A stretch of DNA of 64,000 nt from Octopus vulgaris (taxonomy: Eukaryota), in the NCBI GenBank assembly GCA_951406725.2, contig OX597837.1:25916001-25980000 (forward strand), written 5' to 3'. Position numbers and translations under genes: made by a program. The notes below the pieces were generated by a model. That model saw only the letters and a program-made list of their open reading frames with translations. It did not search any database and had not been told where the DNA came from. Shown in pieces: positions 13,915 through 48,543 of the stretch. Position 1 is the first letter of the stretch; the number at the start of each line of letters is the position of its first letter.

Positions 13915-13915
<1 letters not shown>

Positions 13916-14408
13916 CGGGTGAATGAATTATCCTATGTTTACTGTCAACATGGAAAATTCGATGAACCGATACCAGGGTAGCAAATTCACGTCAGAAACA
14001 CGGTTGAAGCGACCTATCCAAAGGTAGAAACTCTGGGTTCGTGTGCAGAAATTTGTGTGTTATATATGAATAAATAAATAAATGGAGTAGAACGAAGATG
14101 TTAATAAAATTCCTTTACTTTCGACATATGTTTCGAAGACAACATGGTTTTATTCCAAAGGAATAAACGGTCTAAGATGCAATCTTCTCATCAGGAAAGA
14201 AAGGGAGCCTCTCTCAACAACAAGACAATATAATAATTATGATGACTGCCTACATGATAAACAAAACGTTAATAAGTGATGAGAAGATTGCATCTTACAC
14301 CATTTATTCCTTTGGAATAAAACCATGTTGTCTTCGAAACATATGTCGAAAGCAAAGGAATTTTATTAACATCTTCGTTCAACTCCATTTATTTATTTAT
14401 TCATATAT
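13915..14408 (-). mobile_element. fold-back PLE-type element (133-bp inverted arms, 83-bp spacer, one-sided tail)
   Basis: 14061-14193 is the near-perfect reverse complement of 14277-14408; flanked by (TA)n. Confidence 0.8.
14118..14199 (-). ncRNA. minimal type-I hammerhead ribozyme
   Basis: Minus strand: ctttc CTGATGA gaagat...gtcttc GAAA c-atat-g TC gaaag; full core, stem I ctttc/gaaag, GUC cleavage triplet. Confidence 0.85.
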
Positions 14409-14489
14409 ATATATATACCAGCCACCCTGTTGGAATACAGACAAGTGAATGAACCAGTGGATTTCTTTGCTGCTTTACCTATAACCAGA

Positions 14490-14830
14490 ATGGCTGGTTA
14501 TGATGGATTACATCGACATTAGTGAAGAAGATATACTACTAGCCATAAATGAGGTGGATGCAATCTCAACTGCTGGTCCTGATATTTTCCCAGCAATGCT
14601 CCTCAAATTGTGCCCTGGTGAAACCACTATAGATTCTCTTCAGGAGCTTTCTTGCAAATTGCAGGCTGCCAAGCAGAGTGAAGGAGGGAATAATATGCCC
14701 AATCAATAAAGGGGGAAGCAGAGCAGATACCAAAAACTATAGGCCTATCTCTCTGACTTCACACATCAACAAAGTCACGGAACGGATAGTTAGAGGGAAA
14801 CTAACCATATTCCTTGAAGAAAACCACTAC
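14490..14830 (+). pseudogene. non-LTR retrotransposon reverse transcriptase N-terminal fragment (frameshifted)
   Basis: ISEEDILLAINE..STAGPDIFPAMLLK then ICPINKGGSRADTKNYRPISLTSHINKVTERIV, the classic NYRPISL RT motif. Confidence 0.85.
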
Positions 14831-14974
14831 TTCCAAACACATTTAGCCTATGTACAACAGTATTCAATCTAAATATAAGCAGGATTAAACATTAACTTTA
14901 AAATTAAACTACGTAAATCTATGTACATCTGTATCTGTATTATAATAGTAAACCTGCAATAATTAAATTATATA

Positions 14975-15461
14975 CTATATACATATATATATTTGATATA
15001 TATATATATATATATATACATATATATATAATACATATATGTTATACATATACATATTTGATATATATATATAATACATATATATTATACATATACATAT
15101 TTGATATATATATATATAATACATATATATTATACATATACATATTTGATATATATATATATATAATACATATATATTATACATATACATATTTGATATA
15201 TATATATATAATACATATATATTATACATATACATATTTGATATATATATATATAATACATATATATTATACATATACATATTTGATATATATATATATA
15301 TAATACATATATATTATACATATACATATTTGATATATATATATATAATACATATATATTATACATATACATATTTGATATATATATATATAATACATAT
15401 ATATTATACATATACATATTTGATATATATATATATATAATACATATATATTATACATATT

Positions 15462-15496
<35 letters not shown>
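14975..15496. repeat. ~40-bp TA-rich minisatellite
   Basis: Repeating taatacatatatattatacatatacatatttga(ta)n units. Confidence 0.9.
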
Positions 15497-15500
<4 letters not shown>

Positions 15501-15686
15501 CGTATATTTGCCATTTTAATATGGCTAACCCCTAAGGGTGGATGCTACTGTAGTTTGTAGCCCCAGGAGAACAAACTAGAAACTACAGTAGCATCCACCC
15601 TTAGGGGTTAGCCATATTTAAATGGCAAATATACGTCACGATGTGTTGTAGCTACTGTTTATAACTCGCTCTAAGATATATTATTG

Positions 15687-15689
<3 letters not shown>
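15497..15689. mobile_element. small fold-back element in (TA)n
   Basis: ~64-bp inverted arms 15497-15560 / 15576-15639 plus 50-bp tail. Confidence 0.7.
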
Positions 15690-15732
<43 letters not shown>

Positions 15733-16056
15733 ATACATATATATAATATATACATATATATATATTTAAACAAGCATTTAAACACAGCATTTAAACAAGA
15801 TGATCCACATTTTTCATATTATTGAATGTTGTGAACGTTTAAATCATATTTGGTATTATTGAATCTTGTAAAAATTGAACCTTTTAAACATTTTCCTACC
15901 TCGCTATATAAAATTTTTACCATTGATAAACAAAAAAATATTGTCAAAACTGTAAATAAATTTATTTAAAAACAATTTTTCAAATTCAGGAGCATTTTCA
16001 ACAAATTTTCCTATACTTTTTCTTGCATGGAAATACACCCCCTCTTTTGTTAAATA

Positions 16057-16099
<43 letters not shown>

Positions 16100-16726
16100 C
16101 AGTTGCGGCCAAAATGTCCAGAACGGCATTGTTTTCGCCAGAAAAGTAGGTATAAGTTTTTATCAAAGTTGTTTTATGTTCTATAATTTTCACAGACAAT
16201 AAATTTTAAATCTGTCCTTTTTAACCAACTTTACCATAGCACAATCTTCTCTCTTGGCTTACCTGTAGACTTTCTTGCTTCACATGAACCACAATCATCG
16301 AAGACCTTAAGAATACCGTGAACAACACTTTTTGACTTGTTAACAATCTTTGCAATAGACCCAATACTTAAATTATCCTTCTTTCGAAGCTTAATAATCT
16401 GCTGACGAATTGGTAACGGAGTAAGTGGCATTATATTAACGAAGTACACTGCAGATATTCTTACTAATGTTTAGTAAACGAACCATCACATAAACAAATT
16501 CAAAACAACCGTTCTGATCATTTTGGCCGCCATGGGTTTTGCAGTAAATCACTAAATCATCCATAACTTTTGTATTATCCTCTCAAATTACACTAAAATC
16601 TCAGACAATAACAATTAATATCGTATTTATTGTCTGTGAAAATTATAGAATATAAAACAACTTTGATAAAAACTTATACCTACTTTCCTGGCGAAAACAA
16701 TGCCGTTCTGAACATTTTGGCTGCAA

Positions 16727-16729
<3 letters not shown>
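16100..16729 (-). mobile_element. internally deleted Tc1-family DNA transposon
   Basis: ~105-bp TIRs cagttgcggccaaaatg.../...cattttggctgcaactg, TA TSD; ORF 16231-16431 (-) MPLTPLPIRQQIIKL...SIAKIVNKSKSVVHGILK...STGKPR = paired-like HTH with GRPR-type motif. Confidence 0.9.
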
Positions 16730-16772
<43 letters not shown>

Positions 16773-17990
16773 GGAGAGTTTACGAAAACAACAAAAGACG
16801 AAGACAAGTGGTGTACAAAACAAACAGATGTATTAGTATAATGCTCAGGAATAGAAAAAGTCTTTTACGTTTTGAGCCTACGCTCTTCTACAGAAAGGGA
16901 CACAGAAAAAAAACAAGGAGAGAAAAAATGTGTGTAGTGGCTAACGATCTATCATATCTCACTCTATTTATCTACCCTAGTAAATTAATTATTCAAGAGT
17001 AAATGCTACAGTGGTGATACATAAACAGAGTAGGAAGATTGGATTTGTACACCATTAACACCTCCCTATGTTTTGAAACAACAATCAGGGAAAAGATTTA
17101 GGAAAATATTAGATTAAACAGAATAATCAACTTACACACACACACACACACAAACAAACACACACACAAATACACGCATACACAAATACACTAACTATAC
17201 ACATGCACACATTCACGGATGACAACAATAGCCAACCTGCATGCCGCCAGTGAGCTCGCAAAAAATAGCAGCCAAAACTCTCTCAAATTACACTGTACCA
17301 TCTTAAAACTAGGACATAATGAATGGTGTTATTCTGAGCGTGCTGTGCAAGAAAAGACAGGATGGTCATGGCAGGAAGGTCTTTGATTACAGGTCTATGT
17401 GGTTAGGACTGAGCTAAACATTAATTGCAACAACAACAACAACAACGCTGCCACCGCCACCACCACCGCCACCACCACCGCCACCGCCACCACCACCACC
17501 GTCACCACCACCACCACCGTCACCACCACCACCACCACCACTACTACTACCACCACCAGTTGCCACTATTGTCAAAAGTAATAGGTACGTTATTTCTTTG
17601 CAAATATATTTTACGCACACACAAAAAATAAAAATATTTGATTTAATTTGTTTTTTTAGAAAATAAAATGGAGAGAAAAAAAAAAGAAATAAAAAGAAAG
17701 GGATTTGAAAAATCTATGAATTCTCCATAAAAATCTTCAAAGTTTGAAGATAATGGTGTACGTGTGAGGCTGGGAACAATCTATAAAAAAAAAAAACCCA
17801 GCAAAAATATGTTAGTGTTATGATGTTGGTGTGTTTTTATAGCTAGGCTTTCTAAGCAATAAAGTTGTGTTTATATGGAAACAAAAGCTAAAGCTGCTAA
17901 GAACTGGTAAATATGGCAACAGAATCAAAGACAGAAATAAAGGAAGTTTACTGAATGAGTATAGTTTCACCTCTTGGGTGATCCGGAGCA

Positions 17991-18443
17991 AAGATTGTGA
18001 CATTCAACTCTTGAGACCTCAGCAAAGTCAGAGACTGAGAAACATTAAGATTGTGACATTCAACTCTTGAGACCTCAGCAAAGTCAGAGACTGAGAAACA
18101 TTAAGATTGTGACATTCAACTCTTGAGACCTCAGCAAAGTCAGAGACTGAGAAACATTAAGATTGTGACATTCAACTCTTGAGACCTCAGCAAAGTCAGA
18201 AACTGAGAAACATTAAGATTGTGACATTCAACTCTTGAGACCTCAGCAAAGTCAGAGACTGAGAAACATTAAGATTGTGACATTCAACTCTTGAGACCTC
18301 AGCAAAGTCAGAGACTGAGAAACATTAAGATTGTGACATTCAACTCTTGAGACCTCAGCAAAGTCAGAGACTGAGAAACATTAAGATTGTGACATTCAAC
18401 TCTTGAGACCTCAGCAAAGTCAGAGACTGAGAAACATTAAGAT
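17991..18443. repeat. 56-bp tandem repeat, 8 near-identical copies
   Basis: Unit aagattgtgacattcaactcttgagacctcagcaaagtcagagactgagaaacatt; one substitution seen at 18201. Confidence 0.95.
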
Positions 18444-19274
18444 AACGCTGCAGCTTAATTAAAGATTTTGGTTTTTGGGAAAACAGTGATATTTTTAAAG
18501 AACAGCAAAAGGCAGAAAAGATGAAATCTTCAAGTGAACGAAAAGGTCAAATAGCTGGAGTGGTGATGGTAGTGATGAAGGTGGTGGTGTTGGCAGTGGT
18601 GGTGATTGTGGCTGGTGTTGGTGATGATGGTAGTGGTGGAGATGGTAGTAGTTGTGATGGTGGCGGTGGGAGCAATGATGATGGTGATAACAGTGGTGCT
18701 GGAAGTCTGTGAATGGACATTGAAATCTCTGATAATCCTAAATCAGGAAAAGCTATCAAGCAACAACAATGGTTAGTTTTGGCAGCAATAAATCACAGAA
18801 TGAAAGTTTGGTCTGATTAAATTCAATTTATTGTCCAAGAAAGACTAAGCTGAAAGTTAGCAACGCAATAAATATTAGGGGGTCACACATCTCTCACAAA
18901 GGAACAAAGGTTTGATAACTGGGAAATTAGGGCAGCAGAATTTTTATCTGAGTCATGACAACATTGCATAGAATGGCTGGCAGTATTAGTTGTAGGTCTC
19001 TGTGTACTGAGTTCAAATCTCACTGAGGCCAACTTAATAAAGTACCAGTTAAATACAGGAGATCAATTCATTTTTTCCATGTCTCCCCTCCTCTCTGGAA
19101 GAACATAGCCATGTTCAGACTGGTATAAGGATGAGTTCTGTCAAGTTTAAAATGCCCCATACACAGTGTATGTGATAACAGCAATCTCTACATGACCCTC
19201 ATGATAGAGAAGTGTGATTTGAGGAAAGCTTGGCTGCTGTTTCTAGCAGGCTGAAAGACCACTTAGAGGAACAT

Positions 19275-19495
19275 TTAACCCTTTCGTTACCAATCCGGCT
19301 GAACCTGGCTCTGGTTCTGAGTACAAATGTCTTGTTTTCATAAGTTTTGAATGAAAATCTTCCACCAAACCTTAGTCACAATTTATGTTTATAACACTAG
19401 CTTAATGAGAACTAATTTATTTTACTAAATTCTCTGTTAAGTAATTGAAAGAAACACAGAGCATCTCAAAATAAATACAGTAACGAAAGTGTTAA
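19275..19495. mobile_element. piggyBac-type MITE family P2
   Basis: ttaa-ccctttcgttac ... gtaacgaaagtg-ttaa; three more copies at 37975-38687. Confidence 0.85.
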
Positions 19496-20359
19496 GTGGT
19501 TTGAAATTGAACTCCCAGCCTCCTGCCAACCCACGTTGTCATGTAGGTAGTGTGATATTTTGGTTTTCAAGCTGGGTGGTCTCCTTATAAGCAACTGCTT
19601 TACAACAAAGATTAGATGAATTTGAACTCAGAACGTAAAGATGGATGAAATACCACAAGGCATTTTGCCTGAGATGCCAATGTTTCTACCAGCCTGTTGC
19701 CCTAAGAATAATAGCCCTGATGCAGTACCAGGCAGCGGCTCTCGTGGATTCTGATCTTAACTGATTGGAAGTGTTATCGCATATATATATATATATTTCG
19801 TCTTTATTTTATTGATTCTGAAAGGATGAAAGCCAAAATCGGTCTCGGTAGAATTTGAACTCTGATCTGATTATAGGGATGGATGAAATGCCACTGAGCA
19901 TTTTTCCCGGTGTGTTAACAATTCTGCCACTTTGCCACCCTGATAAAATAATTTTCAGGCACAAGGCCTGAAATTTTGGGGTGGGGGTGGGGGTGGGGGT
20001 GGGGGTGGAGAATAGTCAATTACATTGACTCCAGTGTTTCACTGGTACTTAATTTATTGACCCTGAAAGGATGAAAGGCAAAATCAACCTCGGTGGAATT
20101 TGAACTTGGAACATAGAGATGGACAAAATACTGCTAAGCATTTTGCCCAGCGTGCTAATGGTTCTCCCAGCTCACTACCACCATAATAATAATAATAATT
20201 ATAGTAATAATAATAATAATAATGATAATGGTTTTAAATTTTTCTACAAGGGCAGCAATTTTGAGGGAGAGTTGATTACATTGACCCCAGTGTTCAACTG
20301 GTGCTTAATTTATCGACCCCAGAAGGATGAAAGGCAAAGTCAACCTTGCAATATGATTT

Positions 20360-20900
20360 AGCACCAGGCAGTGGCTCTCATGGCTTCTGATCTTAACTGA
20401 TTGGAAGTGTTATGTATATGTTTTGTCTTGGTATAAAAGATGGGCTACAACAAATATTCTGCTCAATACCACAGATTTGCTTGTCAGCTGCTCGACCTAA
20501 ACCAGTTGAGCATGTCCCTTAGTAGCTGACGATATGTGTATCTCTGATCACAAGACGTAATGGGGGAGCATCATAATCAGGTACTGAGAGGAATTCTTTG
20601 GAGTTTGAATAATTCACCTTTGGAAACAGGAGGGTTTTGTTCATCATCCTTATTCAAGGGCCTACTGAGCAGGATGGGCAACTCTACCTGAAGAAAATTC
20701 TAACTGGGCCTCACCTGTAAGGTCATGTGTTGTTTATCTTGATATGAGATCACCATGTCATGCACATGTGGTTGTGATGCATGTGCCTGGTGTACCCTTA
20801 TCAGACGGGTAGTCATAATAAGTATATTGGGCTTCGTATATTTGTACCACAGAGTCACTTTGATGGCATGCACTGCTCTCTCACTCAATAATAATAATAA
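20360..20900 (+). mobile_element. interspersed repeat family E ending in (AAT)n (probable retroposon 3' end)
   Basis: Shared with 21900-22250, 19712-19780 and 28540-28730; constant 3' end ctgctctctcactcaataataat, variable 5' ends. Confidence 0.7.
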
Positions 20901-21233
20901 TGATGATGGACTCACTCATTGAAGTTGACATATGAGTGTTCAGCTTTTGCTGAATGACCAGCAGAAATGATTTGTTTATTGGTATCAAATGCTCATGCTG
21001 CACATTACCTTGCTCTCTCCACCAAATGAACATTGTCTGAACAGGTGCACAGTGAACCATGCATCAGGTGTCGAAGTGATCGCAGAGTAGCGTGAGAGGA
21101 GGTGTTTTGCTCAAGAACACAACGCACCACCCGGCCTAGGAATTGAAATCACCATCTAGCAATTGCAACACCCTAACCACTAGGGATGCCCCTAATAATA
21201 ATAATAATAATAATAATAATAGTAATAATAATA

Positions 21234-21390
21234 ATCATCATCATCATCATCATCGTTTAACGTCTGCTTTCCATGCTAGCATGGGTTGGACGGTTCGACC
21301 GGGGTCTGGGAAGCCAGAAGGCTGCACCAGGCTCCAGTCAGATCTGGCAGAATTTCTACAGATGGATGCCCTTCCTAACACCAACCACTC
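21234..21390 (-). mobile_element. family C repeat, 5'-truncated
   Basis: (CAT)n cgtttaacgtctgctttccatgctagcatgggttggacgg. Confidence 0.75.
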
Positions 21391-21856
21391 AGATTACAAG
21401 ATTATGTAAAATAAAAATTAGATAAATTTTACCTCATATAAATAAATCTGGTCACTGGGAGGGTTTTTTTTTTGCTATTTGTATAAGAAACACTATGAAT
21501 GATGGAATAAACAGAAAATAATAATAACAATAATCCTTTCTACTAAAGGCACAAGGCCTGAAATTTTGGGGGAGGAGGCAAATCAATTACATTGACCCCA
21601 GTGGTTAAACTGGAACTTATTTCATTGGCCCCCAAAAAGATGAAAGGTAAAGTCGACCTCAGTGAAATTTGAACTCAGAATGTAGAGATGACCGAAATGC
21701 AGCTAAGCACCTTGCCCAGCATGCTAACGATTCTCCCAGCACACTGCCGCAATAATAATAATAATGATGATGATGATGATGATGATGATTATAATAATAA
21801 TAGTAATAATAATAATGATAATCATAATAATAATAGTAATGATAATAATAATAATG

Positions 21857-21899
<43 letters not shown>

Positions 21900-22250
21900 G
21901 TGGGGGAGCATCATAGCCATGTGTTGAGAGGGATTCTTTGGGGTTTGAATAGTTCACCTCTCTGGAAACATGGGTGTTCTTTCAACATCCTTAAACAACC
22001 CTTATTCAGGGACCGTTTGAGCAGGATGGGCTACTCAACCTGAAGAAAATTCTAACTGGGCCCCACCTGCAAGGTCATGTGCTGTTTATCTTGATATGAG
22101 ATCACCATGTCGCGCACATATGGTTGTGATGCATGTGCCTGGTGTACCTTTATCAGACGGGTAGTCATGATGGGTATATTGGGCTTCGTATATTTTACTC
22201 CAGTGTCACTTTGATGGCATGAACTGCTCTCTCACTCAATAATAATAATA
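21900..22250 (+). mobile_element. family E repeat between (AAT)n tracts
   Basis: Aligns by eye to 20560-20900. Confidence 0.7.
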
Positions 22251-22312
22251 ATAGTAATAATAATAATGATAATAATAATAATGATAATAATAATAATAAT
22301 AATAATAATAAT

Positions 22313-22360
<48 letters not shown>

Positions 22361-23525: not shown

Positions 23526-23940
23526 TACTCTTTTTACTCTTTTACTTGTTTCAGTCATTTGACTGCGGCCATGCTGGAGCACCGCCTTTAGTCGAGCAAC
23601 TCGACGTCGGGACTTATTCTTTTGTAAGCCCAGTACTTATTCTATCGGTCTCTTTTGCCGAACTGCTAAGTAACGGGGACGTAAACACACCAGCATCGGT
23701 TGTCAAGCAATGCTAGGGGGACAAACACAGACACACAAACATACATACATATACATACATATATATACATATATACGACGGGCTTCTTTCAGTTTCCGTC
23801 TACCGAATCCACTCACAAGGCCTTGGTCGGCCCGAGGCTATAGTAGAAGACACTTGCCCAAGGTGCCACGCAGTGGGACTGAACCTGGAACCATGTGGTT
23901 GGTTAGCAAGCTACTTACCACAGAGCCACTCCTGTGCCTA
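23526..23940 (-). mobile_element. SINE family A
   Basis: Full-length copy. Confidence 0.9.
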
Positions 23941-24170
23941 TACTGTAAAATAAAAAAAAAATATTGGAGACAGAACTGAGTTTACCATTTCTAGTATTTT
24001 GAGATGTGCTAAATTCTTCACCAAGATGTCCCACCCACACAGATCAATTATATAGTGACTTGACCTGCTAAACTAGTAGCCAAAACCTCTTATTGTCTTA
24101 AAAAGAAGGGATGTATAAAAATGATGCTTTCTTAGATATACAGCGTTTGAAGAAAGAAATTAATTAATCA

Positions 24171-24440
24171 CAGGCACAGGAGTGGCTGTGTGGTAAGTAG
24201 CTTGTTTGCCAACCACATGGTTCCGGGTTTGTGTGTCTGTGTTTGTCCCCCTAGCATTGCTTGACAACCGATGCTGGTGTGTTTATGTCCCCATCACTTA
24301 GCTGTTCGGCAAAAGAGACCGATAGAATAAGTACTGGGCTTACAAAGAATAAGTCCCAGAGTCGAGTTGCTCGATTAAAGGCGGTGCTCCAGCATGGCTG
24401 CAGTCAAATGACTGAAACAAGTAAAAGAGTAAAAGAGTAA
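24171..24440 (+). mobile_element. SINE family A with central deletion
   Basis: Head jumps from ccgggtt directly to tgtgtgtctgtgtttgtccc. Confidence 0.85.
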
Positions 24441-27473: not shown

Positions 27474-27879
27474 GCAGGAGTGGCTGTGTGGTAAGTAGCT
27501 TGCTTACCAGCCACATGGTTCCGGGTTCAGTCCCACTGCGTGACAACTTGGGCAAGTGTCTTCTACTATAGCCTTAGGCCAACCAACGCCTTGTGAGTGG
27601 ATTTGGTAGACGGAAACTGAAAGAAGCCCGTCGTATATATGTATGTATATATATATATATATATATGTGTATGTGTGTCTGTGTTTGTTCCCCCCAACAT
27701 CGCTTGACAACCGATGCTGGTGTGTTTACGTCGCTGTAACTTAGCGGTTCGGCAAAAAGACACCGATAGAATAAGTACTAGGCTTACAAAGAATAAGTCC
27801 TGGGGTCGATTTGCACAACTGAAGGCAGCGCTCCAGCATGGCCACAGTCAAAATGACTGAAACAAGTAAAAGAGTAAGA
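27474..27879 (+). mobile_element. SINE family A inserted in a P1 MITE
   Basis: Full-length copy; P1 end actaaagggttaa at 27924-27936. Confidence 0.85.
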
Positions 27880-29349
27880 ATATATGAATAAATAAGCATT
27901 ACTTTTGACAAAATATTGCAAGCACTAAAGGGTTAAAGGAAATGGACCCCACCAGCCCCAAAAAATAAGGCCGGCAACAAGAATTTTGAAACATGGAGAA
28001 GAAGGTGAAGAATATGGTTGATGGCACCAATACACTGCTGTCTGATGGCGATGTGTACTAAAGTTTGACCAGCCTAATTTTTCTGAGATTCTCTTGACAT
28101 TTTTATCTCTACACAGTTGCTGCCATTCCTTCTACTCTTGTAACACTCTCTCTTTACTTGTTTCAGTTATGTGACTGTGGCCATGCTGGAGCACCGCCTT
28201 TAGTCGATCAAATCGACCCCAGGACTTATTCTTTGTAAGCCTAGTACTTATTTTTCGGTCTCTTTTTGCCAAACCGCTAAGTTACAGGGACGTAAACACA
28301 CCAGCATCGGCTGTCAAGCAATGTTGGTGGGGACAAAATTTTAAATTTTTATTTTGTAACAAAATTTTAATTTTTAATTTTTTTTTTTTGGTCTTTGGTC
28401 AGTAAGTGTTATTTCCTATTTGCTTCTATCTAGAAATCAAAGGAAGTGACTACTATTCCCTTCAGGCTTTGCTTTTGTCACCTGGACAACAATATTTTGA
28501 AACTGACCTATTTTCCATTACATTTTAGACAGATTCAGCACTGAGGTGCTGAAGCAAAAATATCATTATAGCAAATATTCTGCAGAATATCACCTATTTG
28601 CTTGACCTTCACACCACTTGAGAGCATATCTGTTAGTGGCTGACAATATGTGGATCTCTGATGATGAACAGGAGTAGTGGGAGAGCATCATAGAGGGATT
28701 CTATGTTGAGAGGGATTCTTTTGGGGTTTGAATAAATGTAACAAAAGCAAATTCTGAAGGAAATATTAGCTAATTTTTCATACTTTCTAGGGGGTAAGCA
28801 AACAGCAAATAACAGTTGCTACCCAAGGACAAAAATTTTTTTGCATAGTGAGCAGTGGTGGTGGTGGGGGGTACCATAGCCATGTGTTGAGAGGGATTCT
28901 TTGGGGTTTGAGTAAATGTAACAAAAGCAAAATTTGAAGGAAATATTAGCCATTTTTCATACTTTCTAGGGGTAAAAAAAACAGGAAATAACATTTGCTA
29001 CCCAAGGATAAAAATTGTATTACATAGAGAGCAGGAGTAGTGGGGGAGCATCATAACCATGTGTTAAGAGGTATTTTTCGGGGTTTGAATAAATATCTTA
29101 ACAAAAGCAAAGTTTTAAGGAAATATCAGGTATTTTTCATACTCTCTAAGAGTAACCAAATAAGAAATATCAAGGACAAAAATTGGGTTGTGCCACAGAA
29201 TAGTCAGAGATCAATTCAGTCGACCAATATCCCAGTAGCCATGTGATCTATTCAATGTTTTCTATATCAGAAGCAACAAATTCTTGTCTGAGCATGTGGC
29301 TGGTTGCATGTATATGCTATTGAAAAGAACTGAAAAAGGTGAAATATAT

Positions 29350-32681: not shown

Positions 32682-33575
32682 GAATGGTGAGCTTGTAGAA
32701 TTGTTAGCATGTCAGGAGAAATGCTTAGTGGTATTCCTTCAGTATTCCTAAGGCGGTGAGCTGGCAGAAACGTTAGCAGGCCGGGCGAAATGCTTAGCGG
32801 TATTTCGTCTGCGTTACGTTGTGAGTTCAAATTCCGCCGAGGTCGACTTTGCCTTTCATCCTTTCGGGGTCGATAAATTAAGTACCAGTTACGCACCGGG
32901 GTCGATGTAATCGACTTAATACCTATGTCTGTCCTTGTTTGTCCCCTCTGTGTTTAGCCCCTTGTGGGTAATAAGGAAATAAGTATTCCTTCAGTATTCC
33001 TAAGGCGGTGAGCTGGCAGAAACGTTAGCAGGCCGGGCGAAATGCGTAGCCGTATTTCGTCTGCCGTTACGTTCTGAGTTCAAATTCCCCTGAGGTCAAC
33101 TTTGCCTTTCATCCTTTCGGGGTCGATAAATTAAGTACCAGTTACGCACTGGGGTCGATGTAATCGACTTAATACCTATGTCTGTCCTTGTTTGTCCCCT
33201 CTGTGTTTAGCCCCTTGTGGGTAATAAAGAAATAGGTATTCCTTCAGTTGCTACGATCTGAGTTCAAATTCCACTGAGGTCAGCTTTGCCTTTCATCCTT
33301 TTGAGTTCGATAAATTAAGTACCAGTTACGCACCGGGGTCGATGTAATCGACTTCATACCTATGTCTGTCCTTGTTTGTCCGATCTGTGTTTAGCCCCTT
33401 GTGGGTAATAAAGAAATAGGTATTCCTTCAGTTGCTACGATCTGAGTTCAAATTCCACTGAGGTCAGCTTTGCCTTTCATCCTTTTGTGGTCGATAAATT
33501 AAGTACAAGTACTGGGATCGATATGATCCGCTTACTCCCTCCCTCCAAATTTCAGGCATTGTGCCAACAATAGGA
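32682..33575 (+). mobile_element. nested head-to-tail array of SINE family B
   Basis: Two full copies (32750, 33002) and two partial ones, joined by tattccttcagt, inside an older B copy. Confidence 0.85.
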
Positions 33576-37565: not shown

Positions 37566-37599
<34 letters not shown>

Positions 37600-37885: not shown

Positions 37886-38822
37886 CAAGGGGGTGTTGCA
37901 AAGTTCCTGGCTTTAAGAAGAATATCATGAAATGCCTGGTTGGTGGCCCAAACTTCTGTGTTCTTTTACAAGGCTTAACCCTTTTGTTACCAGCGCGGCT
38001 GAAACCGGCTCTGGCTCTTTAGTATAAATGTCTTGTTTTCATAAGTTTTGAATTAAAATCTTCCACCAAATCTTAGTCACAATTTATGTTCTTAACACTA
38101 GCTCAATGATAACTTAGTTATTTTACTAAATTCTTTGTTATATTTAAAATTAATTGAAAGAAACACAGAGCATCTCAAAATAAATACAGTAACGAAAGGG
38201 TTAAGATGTGTGATTAAATTAACCCTTTTGTTAAAACCCAGCTGAAACTGGCTCTGACTCTTTAGTATAAATGTCTTGTTTTCATAAGTTTTGAATTAAA
38301 ATCTTCCACCAAATCTTAGTCACAATTTATGTTCCTAACATTAGCTTAATGATAACTAAGTTAGTTTACTAAATTCTTTGTTATATTTAAAGTAATTGAA
38401 AGAAACACAGAGCATCTCAAAATATATACAGTAACGAAAGAGTTAAGCTGTGTGATTAAATTAACCCTTTCGTTAAAACCCAGCTGAAACCAGCTCTAGC
38501 TCTGAGTACAAATGTCTTGTTTTCATAAGTTTTGAATTAAAATCTTCCCCCAAATCTTAGTCACAATTTATGTTCTTAACACTAGTTCAATGATAGCCAT
38601 GTTATTTTACTAAATTATTCGTTATATTTAAAATAATTGGAAGAAACACAGAGCATCCCAAAATAAATACAATAACGAAAAGGTTAAGGGCTTAGAAAAA
38701 CTGAAGGAGTACTTCAACAAGAGTGTGAATCTGAGAGGGGAATATATTGAATAAGATCATAATTAACTGATCCTCCTGTATTTTCCTTTACACAAAACCA
38801 GGAACTTTTCAGTCCCTCCTTG
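37886..38822 (+). mobile_element. mariner-derived non-autonomous element hosting a P2 MITE triplet
   Basis: TIR ta-caagggggtgttgcaaagttcctgg / ccaggaacttttcagtccctccttg; residual transposase C-terminus FFYK-GLEKLKEYFNKSVNLRGEYIE*. Confidence 0.8.
37975..38687. mobile_element. three tandem P2 piggyBac-type MITEs
   Basis: Copies 37979-38200, 38223-38442, 38465-38683, each bounded by TTAA, separated by 14-bp g(a/c)tgtgtgattaaa. Confidence 0.9.
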
Positions 38823-39590: not shown

Positions 39591-40496
39591 CGCCTTGGAA
39601 CCCTGCTTGACATAAGAGTTTCTTATTTCTCTATTGTTTGAATGACTGTAAACTAAACGAGATGGCGCTAACGAGAGAAAGAGACGGAACGAAAATTAAT
39701 ATTGTTCTATCTCTAAAGAATGGACAAAGATAGCGAAAAATGAAGAGGAAAGACTGTGTTGTCTTAAATTTCCGTAATTATGAGATTTAGTTGGGGGGTG
39801 GGTCGGTGGCTTCCACAAGAGTCTGAGAAGCGAGTCTGACAGGTGGAAGTTGTTGAATAAATATTTAATATAGGAATTGATGTGCGTAATGAAGATATGG
39901 AGGTTGATGATGTGTTTTTTTGTTGTTTTTTTTTTACTTTTTCTCTTGTAAATTCGGAATCTAGGAAGATGTCTCTAGGCTATGATAAAACCATTTCAGA
40001 CCACTTCTGGTACTTAATTCCCCTGCCAAGAACTGATAAGCCATTACATCCCCCACCGCCCAGCTTGCTTGATTGTTTGTTTGTTTGATTTAGTGTTGTT
40101 GTATAGGAGACTGAAGGATGGCAAAAGGTGGGGGGGGGGGGTGAGATGGCGGGGGGGGGGGGGGGGGAGGAGGTCAGAATGTGGAGTTTGTGTGATTTCA
40201 TAACCTGGTTCTTTGAGAAATGGGAGAAAGTGACAATAGTTGGAATAAAGACATTAACAACGGTGTGGTGGTGGTGGTCGTGGTGGGGAGTGACAGTCAG
40301 CAGCAGCAACAAACCAATGCAAAGATTTGTATGTAAAAAAAATTAACAAGAGATGTTGTACTTGCGAAAGGAAAGGCAGCCAGTTGTTAAATCATGATGA
40401 TGATGATGTTGAATTATAACAAAGATCCCAAAATTTAACCCAACAGACAGAACCCCACCACACGTATTTCTGGATTATTCTAAGAGTTTTACCAAT

Positions 40497-40793
40497 ATCT
40501 ATCTATCTATCTATCTATCCGCTCAGTCGAAGTCGACTCTCGGTTACTCATTGGATCAGTGTCCTCCAGTCAGTTCTATCCTGGGCCACTTCTTTCAGAT
40601 TGGCTATGTCCATTCTGGTATCACTTCTGATGGTGTCAAGCCAGCGGGTTCTTGGTCGGACTCTTCCTCTCTTGCCACTGACCATTCCAAGCATGATGTC
40701 CTCCTCCAGGAATTTTCTCCGCATAATATGACCGAAATATGTCAATCTATGCTTAGTGATCCTAGCTTCTAGTGACATTTTCAGCCTTATTTG

Positions 40794-40838
<45 letters not shown>

Positions 40839-41040
40839 ATATGTAAATATATATGTATGTATATCTCTCTCTATCCGCTCAGTCGAAGTCGACTCTCGGT
40901 CACTCATTGGATCAGTGTCCTCCAGTCAGTTCTATCCTGGGCCGCTTCTTTCAGATTGGTTATGTCCATTCCGGTATCACTTTTGATGGTGTCAAGCCAG
41001 CGGGTTCTTGGTCGGCCTCTTCCTCTCTTGCCACTGACCA
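40497..41040 (-). pseudogene. two copies of an RTE-BovB-like LINE 3' end
   Basis: SLEARITKHRLTYFGHIMRRKFLEEDIMLGMVSGKRGRVRPRTRWLDTI...AQDRTDWR; 3' end gagtcgacttcgactgagcg then (ATAG)n; copies 40518-40790 and 40874-41040. Confidence 0.9.
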
Positions 41041-41590
41041 ATATAAAGAAGTAAATACAAAGAATAAGGTAATAAAATGGGCGTGTTTGTGTGTAATCAT
41101 CGTCATCATCATTATGATCATTTTAATGTCCATTTTCCATGCTGGCATGGGTTGGACAGTCAGATAAGAAATGGCAAACCAGAGGGCTATGCTATGTTCT
41201 ATCATCTGCTTTGGCATAGTTTCTATGGTTGGATGCCCTTTCTAATGCCAACCCCTTTACAGAGTGTACTGAGTGCTCTTTTCATAGCAACAGCATTGGC
41301 AGGGTCACCAAGTAACTTGCAAGACAAAGTTCCCTCGATTTAGTGGTGGTCGAATAGAGTAATAGCAAGGAAGGCAGCTTTGCCAGTTGATGAGAGATCA
41401 AATGATAATAATAGAAGGATATCTGTAGAAGAGATACAAGGATATCTGTCTGTCTGTCTATCTGTCTGTCTATCTATCTGTGTATCTGTCTATCTATCTG
41501 TGTGTCTATCTGTCTATCTATCTGTGTATCTATCTATCTATCTGTGTATCTATCTATCTATCTATCTGTCTGTCTGTCTGTCTCTCTCTA

Positions 41591-41640
<50 letters not shown>

Positions 41641-41733
41641 AAATATTATTAGAGACAAAACCACTATTTTGCAAAACAAACAAGGAAAGACTTAATCAAT
41701 ACATAAAATTTTAATAAATAGTCAAAAAAACCG

Positions 41734-41776
41734 CCACTACAATCGTTTCTTGTCTTGATCGACAATCTTCAGGTGG
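41734..41776 (-). ncRNA. minimal type-I hammerhead ribozyme (mirror copy)
   Basis: Minus: ccac CTGAAGA ttgtc-gatcaa-gacaa GAAA c-gatt-g TA gtgg. Confidence 0.8.
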
Positions 41777-41820
41777 ACTTCAATAAGTCAGTTTCAAATT
41801 TGAAACTGACTTATTGAAGT

Positions 41821-41863
41821 CCACCTGAAGATTGTCGATCATGACAAGAAACGATTGTAGTGG
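41821..41863 (+). ncRNA. minimal type-I hammerhead ribozyme
   Basis: ccac CTGAAGA ttgtc-gatcat-gacaa GAAA c-gatt-g TA gtgg; stem I ccac/gtgg, 5-bp stem II, GUA triplet. Confidence 0.8.
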
Positions 41864-42579
41864 CGGTTTTTTTTGACTATTTATTAAAATTTTATGTATT
41901 GATTAAGTCTTTCCTTGTTTGTTTTGCAAAATAGTGGTTTTGTCTCTAATAATATTTTATAATATTTTACTATAAAATTGGATTTAATCCTAAATCTGAT
42001 TTTTTTCCCTGTAAATTTGGATTTATTCCCTAATATTTATTATTATATATATATATATATATATATATACGTATATATATGATGGGCTTTTTAAAGTTTC
42101 CATCCACTCACAAGGCTTTGATTGGCCTGAGGGTATAGTAAAAGACACTTACCCAAGGTGCTACACAGTGGGACTGAACCAAGAACCATGTGGTTGGGAA
42201 ACCAGCTTCTTACAACACAGCTATGCCTGTGCCACAGTCTCTCTTAGTAGTCAGGACACAGTATGACTATTTTATTTCTCACTCCTTTCCACCCTCCTCA
42301 CTTTTCCATTTGTGTATCTTTCAAATTGGATTCGCCCAGAAAGATTCCCATATCATTTCAACGAAGAAATTTCTCACATTTGTGAGGGTTCATACAAACA
42401 CACACACACACACATCTCACACTTAATCACTAATCAACTGACATCTTTCCACAAATATTTATCAATATAAAATAGCACCTTCGTTAGTTTTGCAAACAAG
42501 AATTGATAGATTGGAACTAAAACATTTCTAATTAGAAAATATTTATTTATTCAGAAAATTAAAACGAAAAATAAACAAA

Positions 42580-42747
42580 GCGCAGGAGTGGCTGTGTGGT
42601 AAGTAGCTTGCTAACCAACCGCATGGTTCAGGGTTCAGTCCCACTGTGTGGCACCTTGGGCAAGTGTCTTCTACTATAGCCTCGAGCCGACCAAAGCCTT
42701 GTGAGTGGATTTGGTAGACGGAAACTGAAAGAAGCCTGGCGTATATA

Positions 42748-42801
<54 letters not shown>

Positions 42802-43008
42802 TCTCTGTGTGTGTCCCCCTAGCATTGCTTGACAACCGATGGTGGTGTGTTTATGTCCCCGTTACTTAGCGGTTCGGCAAAAGAGACCGATAGAATAAGT
42901 ACTGGGCGTACAAAGAATAAGTCCCAGGGTCGAGTTGCTCGATTAAAGGCGGTGCTCCAGCATGGCCACCAGTCAAATGACTGAAACAAGTAAAAGAGTA
43001 GAGTAAAG
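42580..43008 (+). mobile_element. SINE family A
   Basis: Full-length copy. Confidence 0.9.
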
Positions 43009-43216
43009 AGACCATAAAGTGAAGCTTTGTTTCATTTTCTCTCTCCTCTACTATTTTCAGGATCGACAACTGTAATGCCTTGTTAGTTCTGATTAATTAT
43101 GATGATTAATCCTTTAGCATTCAGATCACTCTGTCAAATGTAGTACTTATTTATTCACTTATGATGACAAACGATAAGACCAACTGATCTATTTCTGTGT
43201 CTGTACCATAAAGTGA

Positions 43217-43562
43217 CTAGCATGGGTTGGACGGTTCGACCGGGGTCTGGGAAGCCATGGAGGCTGCACCAGGCTCCAGTCTGATTTGGCAGTCTTTCTA
43301 CAGCTGGATGCCCTTCCCAACGCCAACCACTCCGTGAGTGTAGTGGGTGCTTTTTACGTGCCACCGGCACAGGGGCCAGAGCAGCCTGGCAAACGGCCAC
43401 GATCGGTTGGTGCTTTTACGTGTCACCAACACGGACGCCAGTCAGGCGACGCTAGTAACTGCCACGCTCGAACGGTGCTTTTACATGTCACCAGCACGGG
43501 TGTCTTAACTACAATTTCCATTCGAATTTTTGATGTTGACGAACTTGACTCAACAGGTCTCC
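43217..43562 (-). mobile_element. family C repeat (RTE LINE 3' UTR)
   Basis: ctagcatgggttggacggttcgaccggggtctgggaagcc...ctcaacaggtc. Confidence 0.8.
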
Positions 43563-43579
43563 TCGTTTTTAATTAATTA

Positions 43580-44091
43580 CTAGCAGTATCGACTGGCGTT
43601 GCTCGGGTTTGTAAGGGAAATAACTATATAAGCATTTTAAGAGAGTTACTTCCCTTATAGATGCCAATTCGGGCTTTCTTAGCCATTTCTGTTTTGGTGT
43701 CTTCAAGCCATGAAGTCGTTGTTCTAAAAGAACGCTGGTCTCCTTGACAACGTTTACGACGTTGCTTTCCTTACACTCCCTTCCCCACAGCTTCACGAGG
43801 GAGGAAAGAAGGGGGAGAAGCAAACAGGTGCAGGTGTGACCATGGATGCCAACTCCGCCGCCATCGACACACGAAAAATTATGCATTAAAATGGAATAAA
43901 AAATGATGTTAAATTATTTTTAAAATCGTAGACTCATCGTAGACACGCGCTAATAGCCAGACGGGCTTGATATTAATCACGACTATAAGATACCCGAATT
44001 TGGTTAAACTGCACCGCAAAATGTGGGAGGAGTTAGGAATCTAAATCGAAGGGGACAGACACTCACACAACTACAGTTTTATATATATAGA
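43580..44091 (-). mobile_element. non-autonomous Helitron
   Basis: Minus strand A|TCTATATATATAAAA ... cccgagcaacgccagtcgatactgCTAG|T; no TSD; sister copy at 48544-48918. Confidence 0.85.
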
Positions 44092-44237
44092 TGTATCATC
44101 TAGTAGCTTTGAGATTTCAATGATGTGATTGCATATCTAGGATTGGTGTGAGAGTCTAGATCTGGCTGGTTTGAACATAAAACAAGTAGAATATCTTGGC
44201 TGGATATGACCTCTTTTTATTGGTCATGAATGACCAT

Positions 44238-44845
44238 TGGATCGCACCTAGAAAGTTCTTGGAGGCACGAGCCCGGAAAAGGTTGTTTGTGGAAGACCAG
44301 CAGTCGCCCATGCATACCAGTCTCCCCTCTTCATATCATTGAAGTAAAAGGGGTAAAGAACCCCCTTTAGTCAGAAATCAATATGGGATTGCACCTAGAA
44401 AGTTCTTGGAGGCACGAGCCCAGAAAAGGTTGTTTGTGGAAGACCAGCAGTCGCCCATGCATACCAGTCTCCTCTTCATATCATTGAAGTAAAAGGGGTA
44501 AAGAACTCCCTTTAGTCAGAAATCAATATGGGATTGCACCTAGAAAGTTCTTGGAGGCACGAGCCCAGAAAAGGTTGTTTGTGGAAGACCAGCAGTCGCC
44601 CATGCATACCAGTCTCCCCTCTTCATATCATTGAAGTAAAAGGGGTAAAGAACCCCCTTTAGTCAGAAATTAATATGGGATTGCACCTAGAAAGTTCTTG
44701 GAGGCACGAGCCCGGAAAAGGTTGTTTGTGGAAGACCAGCAGTCGCCCATGCATACCAGTCTCCCCTCTTCATATCATTGAAGTAAAAGGGGTAAAGAAC
44801 CCCCTTTAGTCAGAAATCAATATGGGATTGCACCTAGAAAGTTCT
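44238..44845. repeat. 147-bp tandem repeat (4+ units) derived from a SINE tail
   Basis: Units at 44238, 44385, 44530, 44677, 44824. Confidence 0.9.
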
Positions 44846-45148
44846 CCTCCAAGGCACAAATCTGAGCAAGTGTTTTGAGGAAGGCCAGCAGTCACCCATT
44901 CATACCAGCCTCTCCTCTCCATGCCACCATTGTTGTCCAAGGGCAAGGCAAAGGCCAATACAGCTTGGGATTAGTGACATCATAACTCAATTCTATTGCT
45001 GAATGAGCTGGAACAACATGACAAAGTGTCTTGTTCAAGAATACAGCTCACAACCCATCAAGAATACAACTCACAGCCTAGTCTGGGAATCGAACTCACA
45101 ACCTCACGATTGTTAGCCCACTGCTCTAACCACTGAGCCATGCACCTT
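44820..45148 (-). mobile_element. tRNA-derived SINE (further family)
   Basis: Minus head aggtgcatggctcagtggttagagc...gagttcgattccc with A and B boxes. Confidence 0.8.
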
Positions 45149-45354
45149 GATTAATTTGTTTGTTCCTTCTTGAGCCATGCCTGGCTCATAAGGGCCAGTT
45201 TCTCAGTTTCATTAGTATATAGATTCCCCACCTGGACAGGACACCGGTCCTTCACAGGTGAACTGCTAGATGCAGGAGGAAAGAGTGAGAGAAAGTTGTG
45301 GTGAAAGAGTCAGCAGAAGTTTGCCATTATTTTCTGTCAGAACCACATGGAGCT

Positions 45355-45748
45355 CAAACAAGAGAGGACAAACAAGGACAGACAAATGGATTAAGTCGAT
45401 TATATTTGACCCTAGTACGTAACTGGTACTTATTTAATCGACCCTGAAAGGATGAAGGGCAAAATCAACCTCGGTGGAATTTGAACTCAGAACGTAGCGG
45501 CAGACGAAATACCTATTTCTTTATTACCCACAAGGGGCTAAACATAGAGGGGACAAACAAGGACAGACAAAGGTATTAAGTCGATTACATCGACCCCAGT
45601 GCGTAACTGGTACTTAATTAATCGACCCCTGAAAGGATGAAAGGCAAAGTCAACCTCGGCGGAATTTGAACTCAGAACGTAGCGGCAGACAAAATACCAC
45701 TAAGCATTTCGCCCGGCATGCTAATGTTTCAGCCAGCTCGCCGCCTTA
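45355..45748 (-). mobile_element. two tandem SINE family B copies
   Basis: Core gaaaggatgaa(a/g)ggcaaa twice; head ccagctcgccgcctt at the right end. Confidence 0.85.
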
Positions 45749-46204
45749 GTACTAGTACATATTATGTGTACAACGTTAACAGTACAAAGATGATCGTAAA
45801 CAACTTTAACAGACATTGAGATGACAAAGAAAAAAATTGATAACTTAAAAACTTTTGATCTCGAAATAGAAAATTAAAAAAAAATTTTGTAAAAAAAAAT
45901 TTGAAAGATAAGTAAATCTAAGTAAAAAAGTTATTGGTCTTTGAAGACAGACATCAAATGGAGAGAACATTTTTGGCAAAAAAAAAAAAAATTAAATTTA
46001 AAGCTATCTTTGATATTTTCAACAAAGTAGTTTCCAAGGAGAGTTTAAAAAATGTTTAGAGGCTAGTACTGACAAAATTCTTCAAGAATTGGTACAGCAT
46101 GTGTTGAACTATTTAACTCTTGTGCCTGACGCGCAACTGTTGTTGTCCACTTGTTTGATTTTATTCCAGAGGATGTGATCCTCCATCTTCATTCTAAGAG
46201 CGAC

Positions 46205-46710
46205 AGCAGCAGCAGCCGTTCAAGAACTTGGACCCGGAGATCTCCATTTCCAGCGACTTCAAGGGTCACCTCCCAGTGGTGTCGGGTGTCAACGAAGAGC
46301 CCTCGACTACAACAAGACGACTAAAGTTGTTTTTTTTTCCAAGGTCTGGGGTCTCCCGCCCCTAAGCCCTAGACCATCATCTAATCACCCTTACCCGTCT
46401 TGTTGCTTAACAACAACAACAACAACAGCAGCAGCAACAACAACAATAACAGCAACAATAACAACAGTAACAACAATGCGTACAGCAGCAGCAGCTGTTT
46501 AAGAATTTGGACCTGGAGATCTCCATTTCCAGCGACTTCAAGGGCCACCTCCCAGTGGTGTCGGGTGTCAACAAAGAGCCCTCGACTACAACAAGACGAC
46601 TAAAGTTGTTTTTTTTTTCCAAGTTCTGGGGTCTCCCGCCCCTAAGCCCTAGACCATCACCTGATCACCCTTACCTGTCTTGTTGCTTAACAACAACAGC
46701 AGCAGCAGCA
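46205..46710. repeat. ~279-bp tandem duplication of GC-richer unique sequence
   Basis: 46205-46440 repeated at about 46484-46710 with scattered substitutions. Confidence 0.85.
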
Positions 46711-46999
46711 GTGCTGCCACCACTGCCACCACCACCACCACCACCACCACCTTCATCAAACATCCATGCTCGCTTGGCGAAATGGAATTTGTTGAGGTGA
46801 ATTTTCTATGGCTGCATGTCCTACCTGTCACCAACCCTCACCTGTTCACAAGAAATACTTCTCCATTGCCAGACATATTTTTGTGGAAGACTAGAAATGA
46901 AGGATACAGCTAGCATGACAGTAATACTCGTTTACAACAATCACAATTTCAAAGCAAGAAGACAGCAACACACACACACACACACACACACAATCATCA

Positions 47000-47420
47000 T
47001 TGTCATCATCATCATCGTCGTTTAACATCAGCTTTCCATGCTGGCATGGGTTGGGCAATTTGACTGAGGACTGGCGAACCAGATGGCTGCACCGGGCTCC
47101 AATTACCCACTACATTCTTGGAGTGGCTGGCATTAGAAAGGGCATCCAGCTGCAGAAACTCTGCCAGACCAGGCTCCAATCAGATCTGGCAGAGTTTCTG
47201 CAGCTGGATGCCCTTCCTAACGCCAACCACTCCGTGAGTGTAGTGGGTGCTTTTACGTGCCACCCGCATGAGGGCCAGTCAGGCGGTACTGGCAACGGCA
47301 ACACTCAAATGGTGTTTTTTACATACCACCTGCGCAAGAGCCAGTCCAACAGTACTGGCAACGACCTCACTCGAATGCTTTTTCATGTGCCAGTAAGGTG
47401 ATGTTGGTAACGATCACCTT
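47000..47420 (-). mobile_element. family C repeat with short internal inversion
   Basis: gaaagggcatccagctgcagaaactctgccaga (about 47137-47169) inverted against 47185-47219. Confidence 0.7.
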
Positions 47421-47463
47421 ACTAGCACTTGTTGCTGTGGCAGTAAGGTGGTTGTTATCAGCA

Positions 47464-47497
<34 letters not shown>

Positions 47498-47501
<4 letters not shown>

Positions 47502-47825
47502 ATACTAAGTAATTAAGGGTTTGGCCTCACCACACACCGAATTTAGAAATAGCAGTCAAAGAGTTTTGGCTATTCTTTCTACTTAAAAGGGAGATCCCAG
47601 TAAAACCACAGCACTTACTGGGATCTCCCTTTAAGTAGAAAGAATAGCCAAAACTCTTTGACTGCTATTTCTAAATTCGGTGTGTGGTGAGGCAAATCGT
47701 TGCTAAACCCTTAATTACTTAGTATTACTTAAACCTTCCTTGAATGGGGCTTTTACATGCCGAAATCTACTTGGTGAAATTAATGATTATTCCAAATTAA
47801 TTAATTTCACCCTTTATTATTATTG
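47498..47825 (+). mobile_element. fold-back element in (TA)n, ~105-bp arms, 11-nt loop, one-sided tail
   Basis: 47498-47604 mirrors 47615-47729 apart from a small indel. Confidence 0.8.
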
Positions 47826-47961
47826 ATATATATATAATATATATATATATACATATATTATAATAAATTAGAGACAAAACCACTATTATGTAAATCAAAC
47901 AAAGAAAGACTTAAGCCAATACATAAAATAATTTATATAAATTAAAATTTAACAAATGAAT

Positions 47962-48015
47962 AACCACTACGATATCGTTTCGTGTCAGCATATCTTAGAC
48001 ATTCTTCAGGTGGTT
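47962..48015 (-). ncRNA. minimal type-I hammerhead ribozyme (mirror copy)
   Basis: Minus: aaccac CTGAAGA atgtc...gacac GAAA c-gatatc-g TA gtggtt. Confidence 0.75.
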
Positions 48016-48074
48016 TCTAAACTTCTTAGCGAGTTATAAACTTCATAGTTTATAACTCGCTAAGAAGGTTTAGA

Positions 48075-48126
48075 AACCACCTGAAGAATGTCTAAGATGT
48101 GCTGACACGAAACGATCGTAGTGGTT
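48075..48126 (+). ncRNA. minimal type-I hammerhead ribozyme
   Basis: aaccac CTGAAGA atgtc-taagatgtgct-gacac GAAA c-gatc-g TA gtggtt; palindromic stem III; A.C mismatch at base of stem II. Confidence 0.78.
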
Positions 48127-48543
48127 ATTCATTTGTTAAATTTTAATTTATATAAATTATTTTATGTATTGGCTTAAGTCTTTCTTTGTTTGATTTGCAT
48201 AATAGTGGTTTTGTCTCTAATTTAATATAATATAATATTTTACTATAAAATTGGATTCAATTTTAATCTGATTTTTCCTTGTAAATTTGGATTTATTCCC
48301 TAATATTTATATATATATATACACACACATACACACAATGGGCTTCTTTTAGTTTCAATCTCTCAAACCCATTCACAAAGCAGTATTGGCCCAAGGCCAC
48401 GGTAGTAGACATTTACCCAAGATGCCACACAGTGCAACTGAACTCAAAACCATGTGGTTGGGAACGAAACTTCTTACCACACATCCAAGCTTGCACCTTA
48501 TTATTCAAATATATGATTATAATAATTATAATATTATAATCAA

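Follow-up and report, generated by a model that had tools for sequence, protein, structure and literature searches.

The window analysed here, a 64,000-nt stretch of the Octopus vulgaris genome (assembly GCA_951406725.2, contig OX597837.1, positions 25,916,001 to 25,980,000), carries five fold-back elements, named A (at 47855), B (41637), C (14061), D (47498) and E (15497). All five were recovered by self-BLAST of the window (Table 1), and all have (TA)n on their flanks, inverted arms, a tail on one side only and no open reading frame (ORF), as described by an earlier sequence-only reading of this DNA. That reading had counted at least four sequence types, which agrees with the four types plus one subfamily found here, A and B being ~82% alike. 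An assembly artefact is an unlikely source of the palindromes, because ~1,700–2,000 candidate sites per family occur in the 2.8 Gb genome and the arms end at fixed biological sites. Both arms are spliced in A as well as in B of the window; the joint of the A long arm is the site of a 1275-nt GT-AG intron in the parent copy L063, and B is 98–99% identical to the end repeat of intact Penelope-like elements (PLEs). The fold-backs themselves are mostly the known footprint of PLE insertion, that is, ordinary PLE debris; the spliced, start-site-bounded and splice-matched state of their arms offers a new handle on the PLE mechanism.

Table 1. Fold-back elements of the window with their arms, tails and hammerhead motifs
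Feature	Position	Strand	Self-BLAST span	Details
Element C	13915–14409	−	14061–14409	End-repeat pair of another endonuclease-bearing PLE
C long arm	14262 to 13915	−		Tail 13915–14060
C short arm	14277–14409	+		Without C3 and stem I
C long-arm hammerhead		−		Core 14194; long stem II
Element E	15494–15689	+	15494–15689	Truncated pair from tandem unit of ~353 nt
E short arm	15494–15573
E long arm	15576–15689
Element B	41632–42040	+	41632–41965	Head-to-head pair of spliced leader copies
B short arm	41632–41798	−		Spliced
B long arm	41799–42040	+		Splice joint 41812/41813; tail ~41966–42040
B short-arm hammerhead		−		Core 41772; predicted cut after 41738
B long-arm hammerhead		+		Core 41825; predicted cut after 41859
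Element D	47498–47827	+	47498–47729	Truncated pair from tandem unit of ~575–600 nt
D short arm	47498–47617
D long arm	47615–47827
(TA)n tract common to D and A	47826–47862			Either landed in the other's flank
Element A	47855–48310	+	47854–48234	Head-to-head pair of spliced leader copies; Hydra-clade PLE subfamily (putative)
A short arm	47855–48042	−		Spliced; ends at short start site
A short-arm type I hammerhead	47962–48015	−		Core 48009; predicted cut after 47968
A long arm	48040–48310	+		Predicted +1 A at 48040; 28-nt exon 1; splice joint 48067/48068
A long-arm type I hammerhead	48075–48126	+		Core 48081; predicted cut after 48120; self-complementary helix III
A long arm, 3′ part		+		Ends at long start site; tail ~48235–48310

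A, B and C are not short non-coding tandem units; each maps to the end repeat of a PLE that encodes protein. In long A copies, a frame of GIY-YIG type lies upstream of the promoter, and a search with this frame returned many frames of 820–860 aa. B matches both end repeats at 97–99% in four loci (L134, L136, L137 and L139), where an 838-aa ORF begins ~55 nt after the tail. The motifs DIDNYY, YRDD and VVYKC..YIG mark it as a reverse transcriptase (RT) followed by a C-terminal GIY-YIG endonuclease in a single ORF; atlas look-alikes of the protein at 0.93–0.97 include RVT_1 clusters, and Pfam and PDB searches with the parent ORF gave no match. The parent protein further has DKT for DKG (QSDKTRNLY), an N-terminal RWK-like motif with K replacing R (RIKWKAF vs. 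RMRWKAF in Hydra-1_Obim), the linker CxCx5C as CTCRDKSNC, and the endonuclease CxxC and CxH as CYLC and CRH. DKT, RWK, CxCx5C, CxxC and CxH are the marks of the Hydra clade (PMC8557442). By these motifs, with reference proteins compared by eye, the parent of A and B appears to be a Hydra-clade PLE, and it also shows (TA)n insertion and a canonical hammerhead in its end repeat. The repeat-to-repeat distance of ~6.0–6.3 kb in the four loci lies outside the tendency of that clade to stay below 3 kb.

An asparagine-rich stretch was noted between RT and endonuclease of the parent (L136:2712–5225, residues ~495–605), like the inserts of rotifer PLEs (PMC3846280). Related PLE subfamilies in L131 (6150–6440), L145 (5680–5950, oriented) and L110 carry the hammerhead only ~200 nt past the ORF stop and have neither a long 3′ region nor a leader intron; in L110, the promoter is joined almost directly to the ribozyme exon.

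For C, D and E, the top 30 matches each were sampled, which are the best matches and not an unbiased set. C lies ~250 nt downstream of a related GIY-YIG-type region in 3 of its 30 loci (L160, L177 and L180). The units of D (~575–600 nt) and E (~353 nt) are non-coding, repeat head to tail and include a hammerhead (L204 and L236), and no PLE protein match was found in the 60 D and E loci. As judged from sequence, the two are retrozyme-like tandem repeats.

The leader intron separates long from short copies. In long A copies it is 1275 nt (AAG/GTAAGT..TTTTAG/GTTT) and is precisely absent from the short fold-backs; that of B is ~1.83–1.87 kb (CTT/GTAAGT..TTTTAG/ATTG) and is precisely absent from the stubs. 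The acceptor lies at the 5′ edge of hammerhead helix I (window 48068–48075 and 41813–41821). Exact-pattern matching across the genome counted 502 spliced and 439 unspliced B arms, and the joint followed by the ORF start was found in 16 unspliced and 0 spliced cases (B; Fisher p 4e-6).

The 5′ ends of the spliced arms mostly lie at a predicted transcription start, recognised by the initiator consensus. In a sample of 30 spliced B arms, none extends 5′ beyond the A of TCACTT, which precedes the donor by 23 nt, and 46 of 48 spliced A arms match ≤28 nt of the 28-nt exon. Among the 57 B arms that reach the A of TCACTT, 30 were examined and 27 stop exactly there. An extra G stands at position −1 in 16 of these 27, where the genome base is C and the partner arm consists of G to 11%; grouped by hand into distinct contexts, the G was present in 6 of 14 (p 0.002), and two cases are solo arms within (TA)n. 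The extra G is likely cap-templated, start site and cap being predicted from DNA.

The splice state agrees between the arms of a pair. Contigs C1 and C2, together with C3 up to 64.56 Mb, carry 75 spliced B arms and 100 unspliced ones, among which there were 19 pairs with both arms spliced, 26 with both unspliced and none mixed, while independent choice would predict about half of the pairs mixed. The A pairs behaved likewise (11 both spliced, 7 both unspliced, 0 mixed). The arms of B pairs are 28–100 nt apart when spliced and 0.5–14.6 kb when unspliced, apart from one spliced pair at 336 nt that is probably two insertions. Neither spliced PLE leader stubs nor splice-state agreement of arms was found in the literature searched, which covered few subscription papers and supplements for PMC8557442 only; older Penelope papers outside this coverage (Arkhipova 2003, 2006; Evgen'ev and Arkhipova 2005; Pyatkov 2002, 2004) may mention intronless copies.

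In L241, L244 and L262, solo A arms start precisely at the acceptor and are preceded by unrelated sequence; this may reflect splicing of host sequence to the acceptor, or truncation by chance. Contigs from four presumed-RNA runs, with leader exon coverage far above that of the ORF and two A>G differences, were not used as evidence, as they inform on neither strand, starts nor editing and have no DNA control.

The centres of the fold-backs vary between copies in all four sequence types. The choice between fixed and variable palindrome centres had been put forward as a check, and its outcome points to palindromes formed at each insertion. The A sample (loci of the first 100 of 263 exact matches to an A motif, plus eight further loci) yielded 76 rows, with two from L071 and none from L003, of which 54 are two-armed and 22 solo. 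In all 54 two-armed rows exactly one arm ends at a long site, and the partners end at a short site ~72 nt upstream of it (one ends earlier still), the stretch between both sites being the tail. All 54 pairs thereby show the published layout of PLE insertions, an inverted 5′-truncated copy at the 5′ end and a tail at one end. B has the same one-sided inverted layout, and C, D and E have the same arm-end pattern with tails of ~144, 102 and 47 nt. Variable centres, asymmetric ends and solo arms do not fit the fixed interior and symmetric ends of unit-replicating fold-backs or of elements akin to miniature inverted-repeat transposable elements.

Mobilisation by PLEs, the ORF-less state and (TA)n targeting, all part of the sequence-only reading, were confirmed. 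The same reading had named variable 5′-inverted truncations of PLEs as an outcome that would speak against it, and this is largely what was found; the inverted 5′-truncated copy, one-sided tail, (TA)n targeting and end-repeat hammerheads are already described (PMC8557442, PMC3846280).

One inverted unspliced A insertion occurs twice on contig C1, 373 kb apart (L089/L088 and L091/L090, at 8.39 and 8.77 Mb), which is either a segmental duplication or an assembly duplicate.

We propose that the fold-backs are quite probably paired short end copies of a PLE or of a tandem hammerhead repeat, formed anew per insertion by twin priming on one sense RNA. The Hydra-type GIY-YIG endonuclease would cut both strands inside (TA)n, and the two target 3′ ends would start complementary DNA (cDNA) at the short and the long internal sites, the interval between them becoming the tail. 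Both cDNAs would be read from one and the same sense RNA molecule, and their 3′ ends would be joined by short homology. On spliced, capped messenger RNA (mRNA), only the 5′ start sites, 170–270 nt from the cap, would be used, leaving a leader stub that ends at the cap and a short palindrome as the product. The source of long and full-length copies would be unspliced read-through RNA, with priming in the 3′ end repeat. The hammerhead, buried in the hairpin and without a partner for a dimeric fold, is predicted to be inert cargo. Twin priming on one RNA would thus give the head-to-head layout, the tail rule, the independent 5′ ends and the matched splice state at once. We also lean, with little more than even confidence, to the view that the stubs record a dimeric RT that copies one sense RNA twice, with spliced mRNA ending in dead-end palindromes and unspliced RNA in full-length elements.

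In L1 twin priming, which produces 5′ inversions, the two ends of the target prime on a single RNA, and short homology joins the cDNAs. The twin-primed segments of L1 do not overlap, whereas the arms of the present fold-backs do and form a palindrome.

Several observations weigh against twin priming on a single capped mRNA. Two of the 48 spliced A arms gave a score of 33 nt where the exon has 28, and 3 of the 30 B arms examined (two insertions, L312/L313 and L330) are spliced yet overrun the predicted start by ~25 and 115 nt at their 5′ ends. That start and the cap are DNA predictions from an initiator-like site, and 8 of the 16 cases of extra G sit on one junction where the partner arm could supply the G. 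Some centres recur (L001, L007, L019 and L027). The nearest match of an arm was its own partner in only 10 of 38 A pairs, so that sequence alone is no proof of one RNA molecule, and post-insertion conversion between arms could contribute to their agreement. The nested double palindrome of L072 (778–1317, contig C7), in which both centres are identical and a private variant is shared, is best read as a fold-back RNA re-copied or a double snap-back.

A snap-back in which a single cDNA copies itself and the endonuclease trims the second arm, leaving the tail, would give both arms the same splice state and subfamily without a second priming. The 5′ reach of the arms bears on this mechanism. Among the A pairs, the long arm reaches further 5′ in 15, which a snap-back covers; however, the tail-less short arm reaches further in 25 (7 pairs were equal and 7 not determined), and some tailed arms are <100 nt. 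These 25 pairs strain the snap-back: a copy cannot extend past its template both ways, and we regard this mechanism as very unlikely.

The sequence-only reading had suggested a non-autonomous, PLE-mobilised class of fold-backs whose palindrome may shield host pre-mRNA from cleavage, feed Dicer or be unlocked by ADAR, with an inert by-product of PLE integration as its alternative. As a rival to twin priming, this becomes a class replicating as a unit in which the palindrome is maintained to lock the ribozyme. A type I hammerhead descriptor, run on the window and on 30 block-shuffled control windows, gave 5 matches vs. a mean of 0.033. The matches, with core CUGANGA, GAAA, UH and helices I–III, lie on both strands of A and B and on the minus strand only of C, in which the plus arm begins just past C3 and has no stem I, leaving one full ribozyme instead of two. 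Of the claim that three elements hold full hammerhead cores, five motifs in A, B and C stand, C contributing a single copy. An Rfam scan of the window found no hammerhead, and its microRNA matches were rejected as low-complexity or hairpin noise. The D and E copies of the window are without ribozyme, the family hammerhead being 5′ of the retained part; the family E core is CCGAUGA, with C replacing U4, in most copies shown (L236:1362). Further hammerhead-like families unrelated to A–E, some as inverted pairs, were noted at L138:9710, L147:9064, L148:998, L150:1688 and L236:831.

By folding, the long hairpin was more stable than the ribozyme fold by 75–100 kcal/mol in the whole element, while the ribozyme fold cost 0–7 kcal/mol in a single arm. 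The hairpin is thus predicted to sequester the catalytic fold, as had been expected. The antisense ribozyme copy is indeed transcribed first, yet this is a consequence of head-to-head geometry. The lock follows from that geometry as well and looks like a by-product, and no sign of selection for it was seen. The ribozyme core was not better kept than the rest of the arm (1/719 vs. 33/7764 sites, p 0.36, low power; 66 of 67 arms, the misaligned L333 left out); a p of 0.04 was rejected as driven by that one arm. Spliced B arms showed no A>G excess (3 A>G, 5 T>C). A host function of the lock, through pre-mRNA protection, Dicer or ADAR, is unsupported.

The strong predicted lock, the recurrence of some centres, and L072, whose identical centres and private variant are as for a re-copied fold-back transcript, would suit a class that replicates as a unit. 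However, junctions vary in most copies, the arms map to PLE end repeats or tandem units, and 22 of the 76 A rows are solo. One recurring B junction spans two subfamilies with either arm at +1 (6 long, 2 short), which fits a short-homology hotspot, and in a survey of 105 A and 60 B loci, in partly overlapping sets, nested copies amounted to one insertion (L072) among the former and none among the latter. The core that is no better kept than the remaining arm (at low power), the missing ribozymes of D and E in the window, and helix III, which is short and mostly self-complementary in the five window motifs, speak against it as well, short-helix-III hammerheads being reported as weak monomers (PMC4209133). 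Replication as a unit was not borne out and is in our view very unlikely.

Self-priming on an antisense transcript has been hypothesised to yield head-to-head repeats and intron retention (PMC3846280). The unspliced pairs show all that it predicts, namely arms placed head to head, junctions that are palindromic and introns that are retained; on the other side stand the 502 B arms with a precise sense-strand GT-AG joint, which mostly end at the predicted sense start. Since antisense RNA of an intact element cannot carry sense splice joints, this model needs a prior spliced DNA copy or RNA-dependent copying. We hold it to be highly improbable as the source of the fold-backs, and the spliced stubs argue against an antisense template in PLE intron retention, at least for spliced copies. 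Least probable of all is descent of the intronless stubs from a few intron-deleted DNA masters instead of ongoing mRNA splicing: the spliced insertions L312/L313 and L330 keep the upstream promoter and could be or become masters, but the two splice states share subfamilies (the ATTG and the ATTGG form are each represented in both), A and B are alike affected, always with exact GT-AG borders, and sense RNA begun at the same start would remain the template.

Compared with known systems, the parent of A and B shares DKT, the RWK-like RIKWK, YRDD, CxCx5C, GIY-YIG-type VVY..YIG, CxxC and CxH with the Hydra-clade C-terminal endonuclease-bearing (EN+) PLEs (Craig et al., 2021, PMC8557442), as well as the (TA)n target, canonical hammerhead, inverted 5′-truncated copy and one-sided tail. 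Compared by eye, it is unlike Hydra-1_Obim, and it differs from the clade in its ~6.0–6.3 kb unit, 1.7-kb 3′ region and 1.8-kb leader intron (vs. <3 kb) and in tails of 47–144 nt here vs. 30–40. The asparagine-rich insert and the hundreds of spliced stubs also set it apart, no description of such stubs having been found in the literature searched.

Penelope of Drosophila virilis and Chlamys-3_cRei (PMC2377424, PMC8557442, PMC4209133) resemble the present elements in a start inside the end repeat, a short first exon, a leader intron that ends at the 5′ edge of hammerhead helix I, and long copies that retain it. Their intron is 75 or 398 nt vs. 1.3–1.9 kb here, and abundant spliced genomic copies, all of them short stubs, are a property of the octopus families. 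In the in vitro work on Poseidon PAc (Frangieh et al., 2024, PMC11167929), the PLE protein cleaves both strands and extends them, with initiation at two internal sites delimiting the tail and without a need for ribozyme cleavage. The two tail-bounding start sites, AT-rich target and predicted dimer are as proposed here, whereas the start sites of our families lie upstream of the ATG; later steps were left open in that study, and inverted pairs, splicing and single-RNA use are unaddressed in the text available. D and E resemble non-LTR (long terminal repeat) retrozymes (PMC7229834, bioRxiv 10.64898/2026.07.22.740005) in being non-coding repeats arrayed head to tail, each unit with a type I hammerhead; the D unit of ~575–600 nt exceeds the 150–450 nt cited for them, and that of E is ~353 nt. 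Inverted insertions are not described in the main texts of these two sources, as far as available.

Intron retention, sense vs. antisense template and the origin of the inverted repeat with its tail are open questions in PMC8557442 and PMC3846280, and an apparently intact family whose young copies number in the hundreds and occur in both splice states makes them countable. The family also lends itself to in vitro study. Most Penelope transcripts are spliced, and selection for the intron has been proposed (PMC2377424). If twin priming on one RNA and the fate of the two RNA forms are as proposed, such selection is unneeded, a mechanical reason is offered for intron retention, which is of unknown significance according to PMC8557442, and stubs would serve to locate the start sites and splice sites of PLEs in any genome. 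As a by-product, many near-perfect hairpins of 150–400 bp lie in the genome and may serve as editing or small-RNA substrates.

Elsewhere in the window, no host exon was recognised among the long frames. Other inverted repeats of 58–242 nt at 85–91% (47105–47248, 58308–58946, 27684–28337 and 23882–24229) apparently are a common dispersed repeat. Tandem arrays occupy 10597–11719, 17991–18443, 32731–33510, 37975–38688, 44239–44845 and 51169–52056, with periods of 285, 56, 253/184, 241, 147 and 23, and none has a hammerhead descriptor match. At 16100–16500, a TA-CAGTTGCGGCC start after a (TA)n tract resembles what we take to be a Tc1/mariner end.

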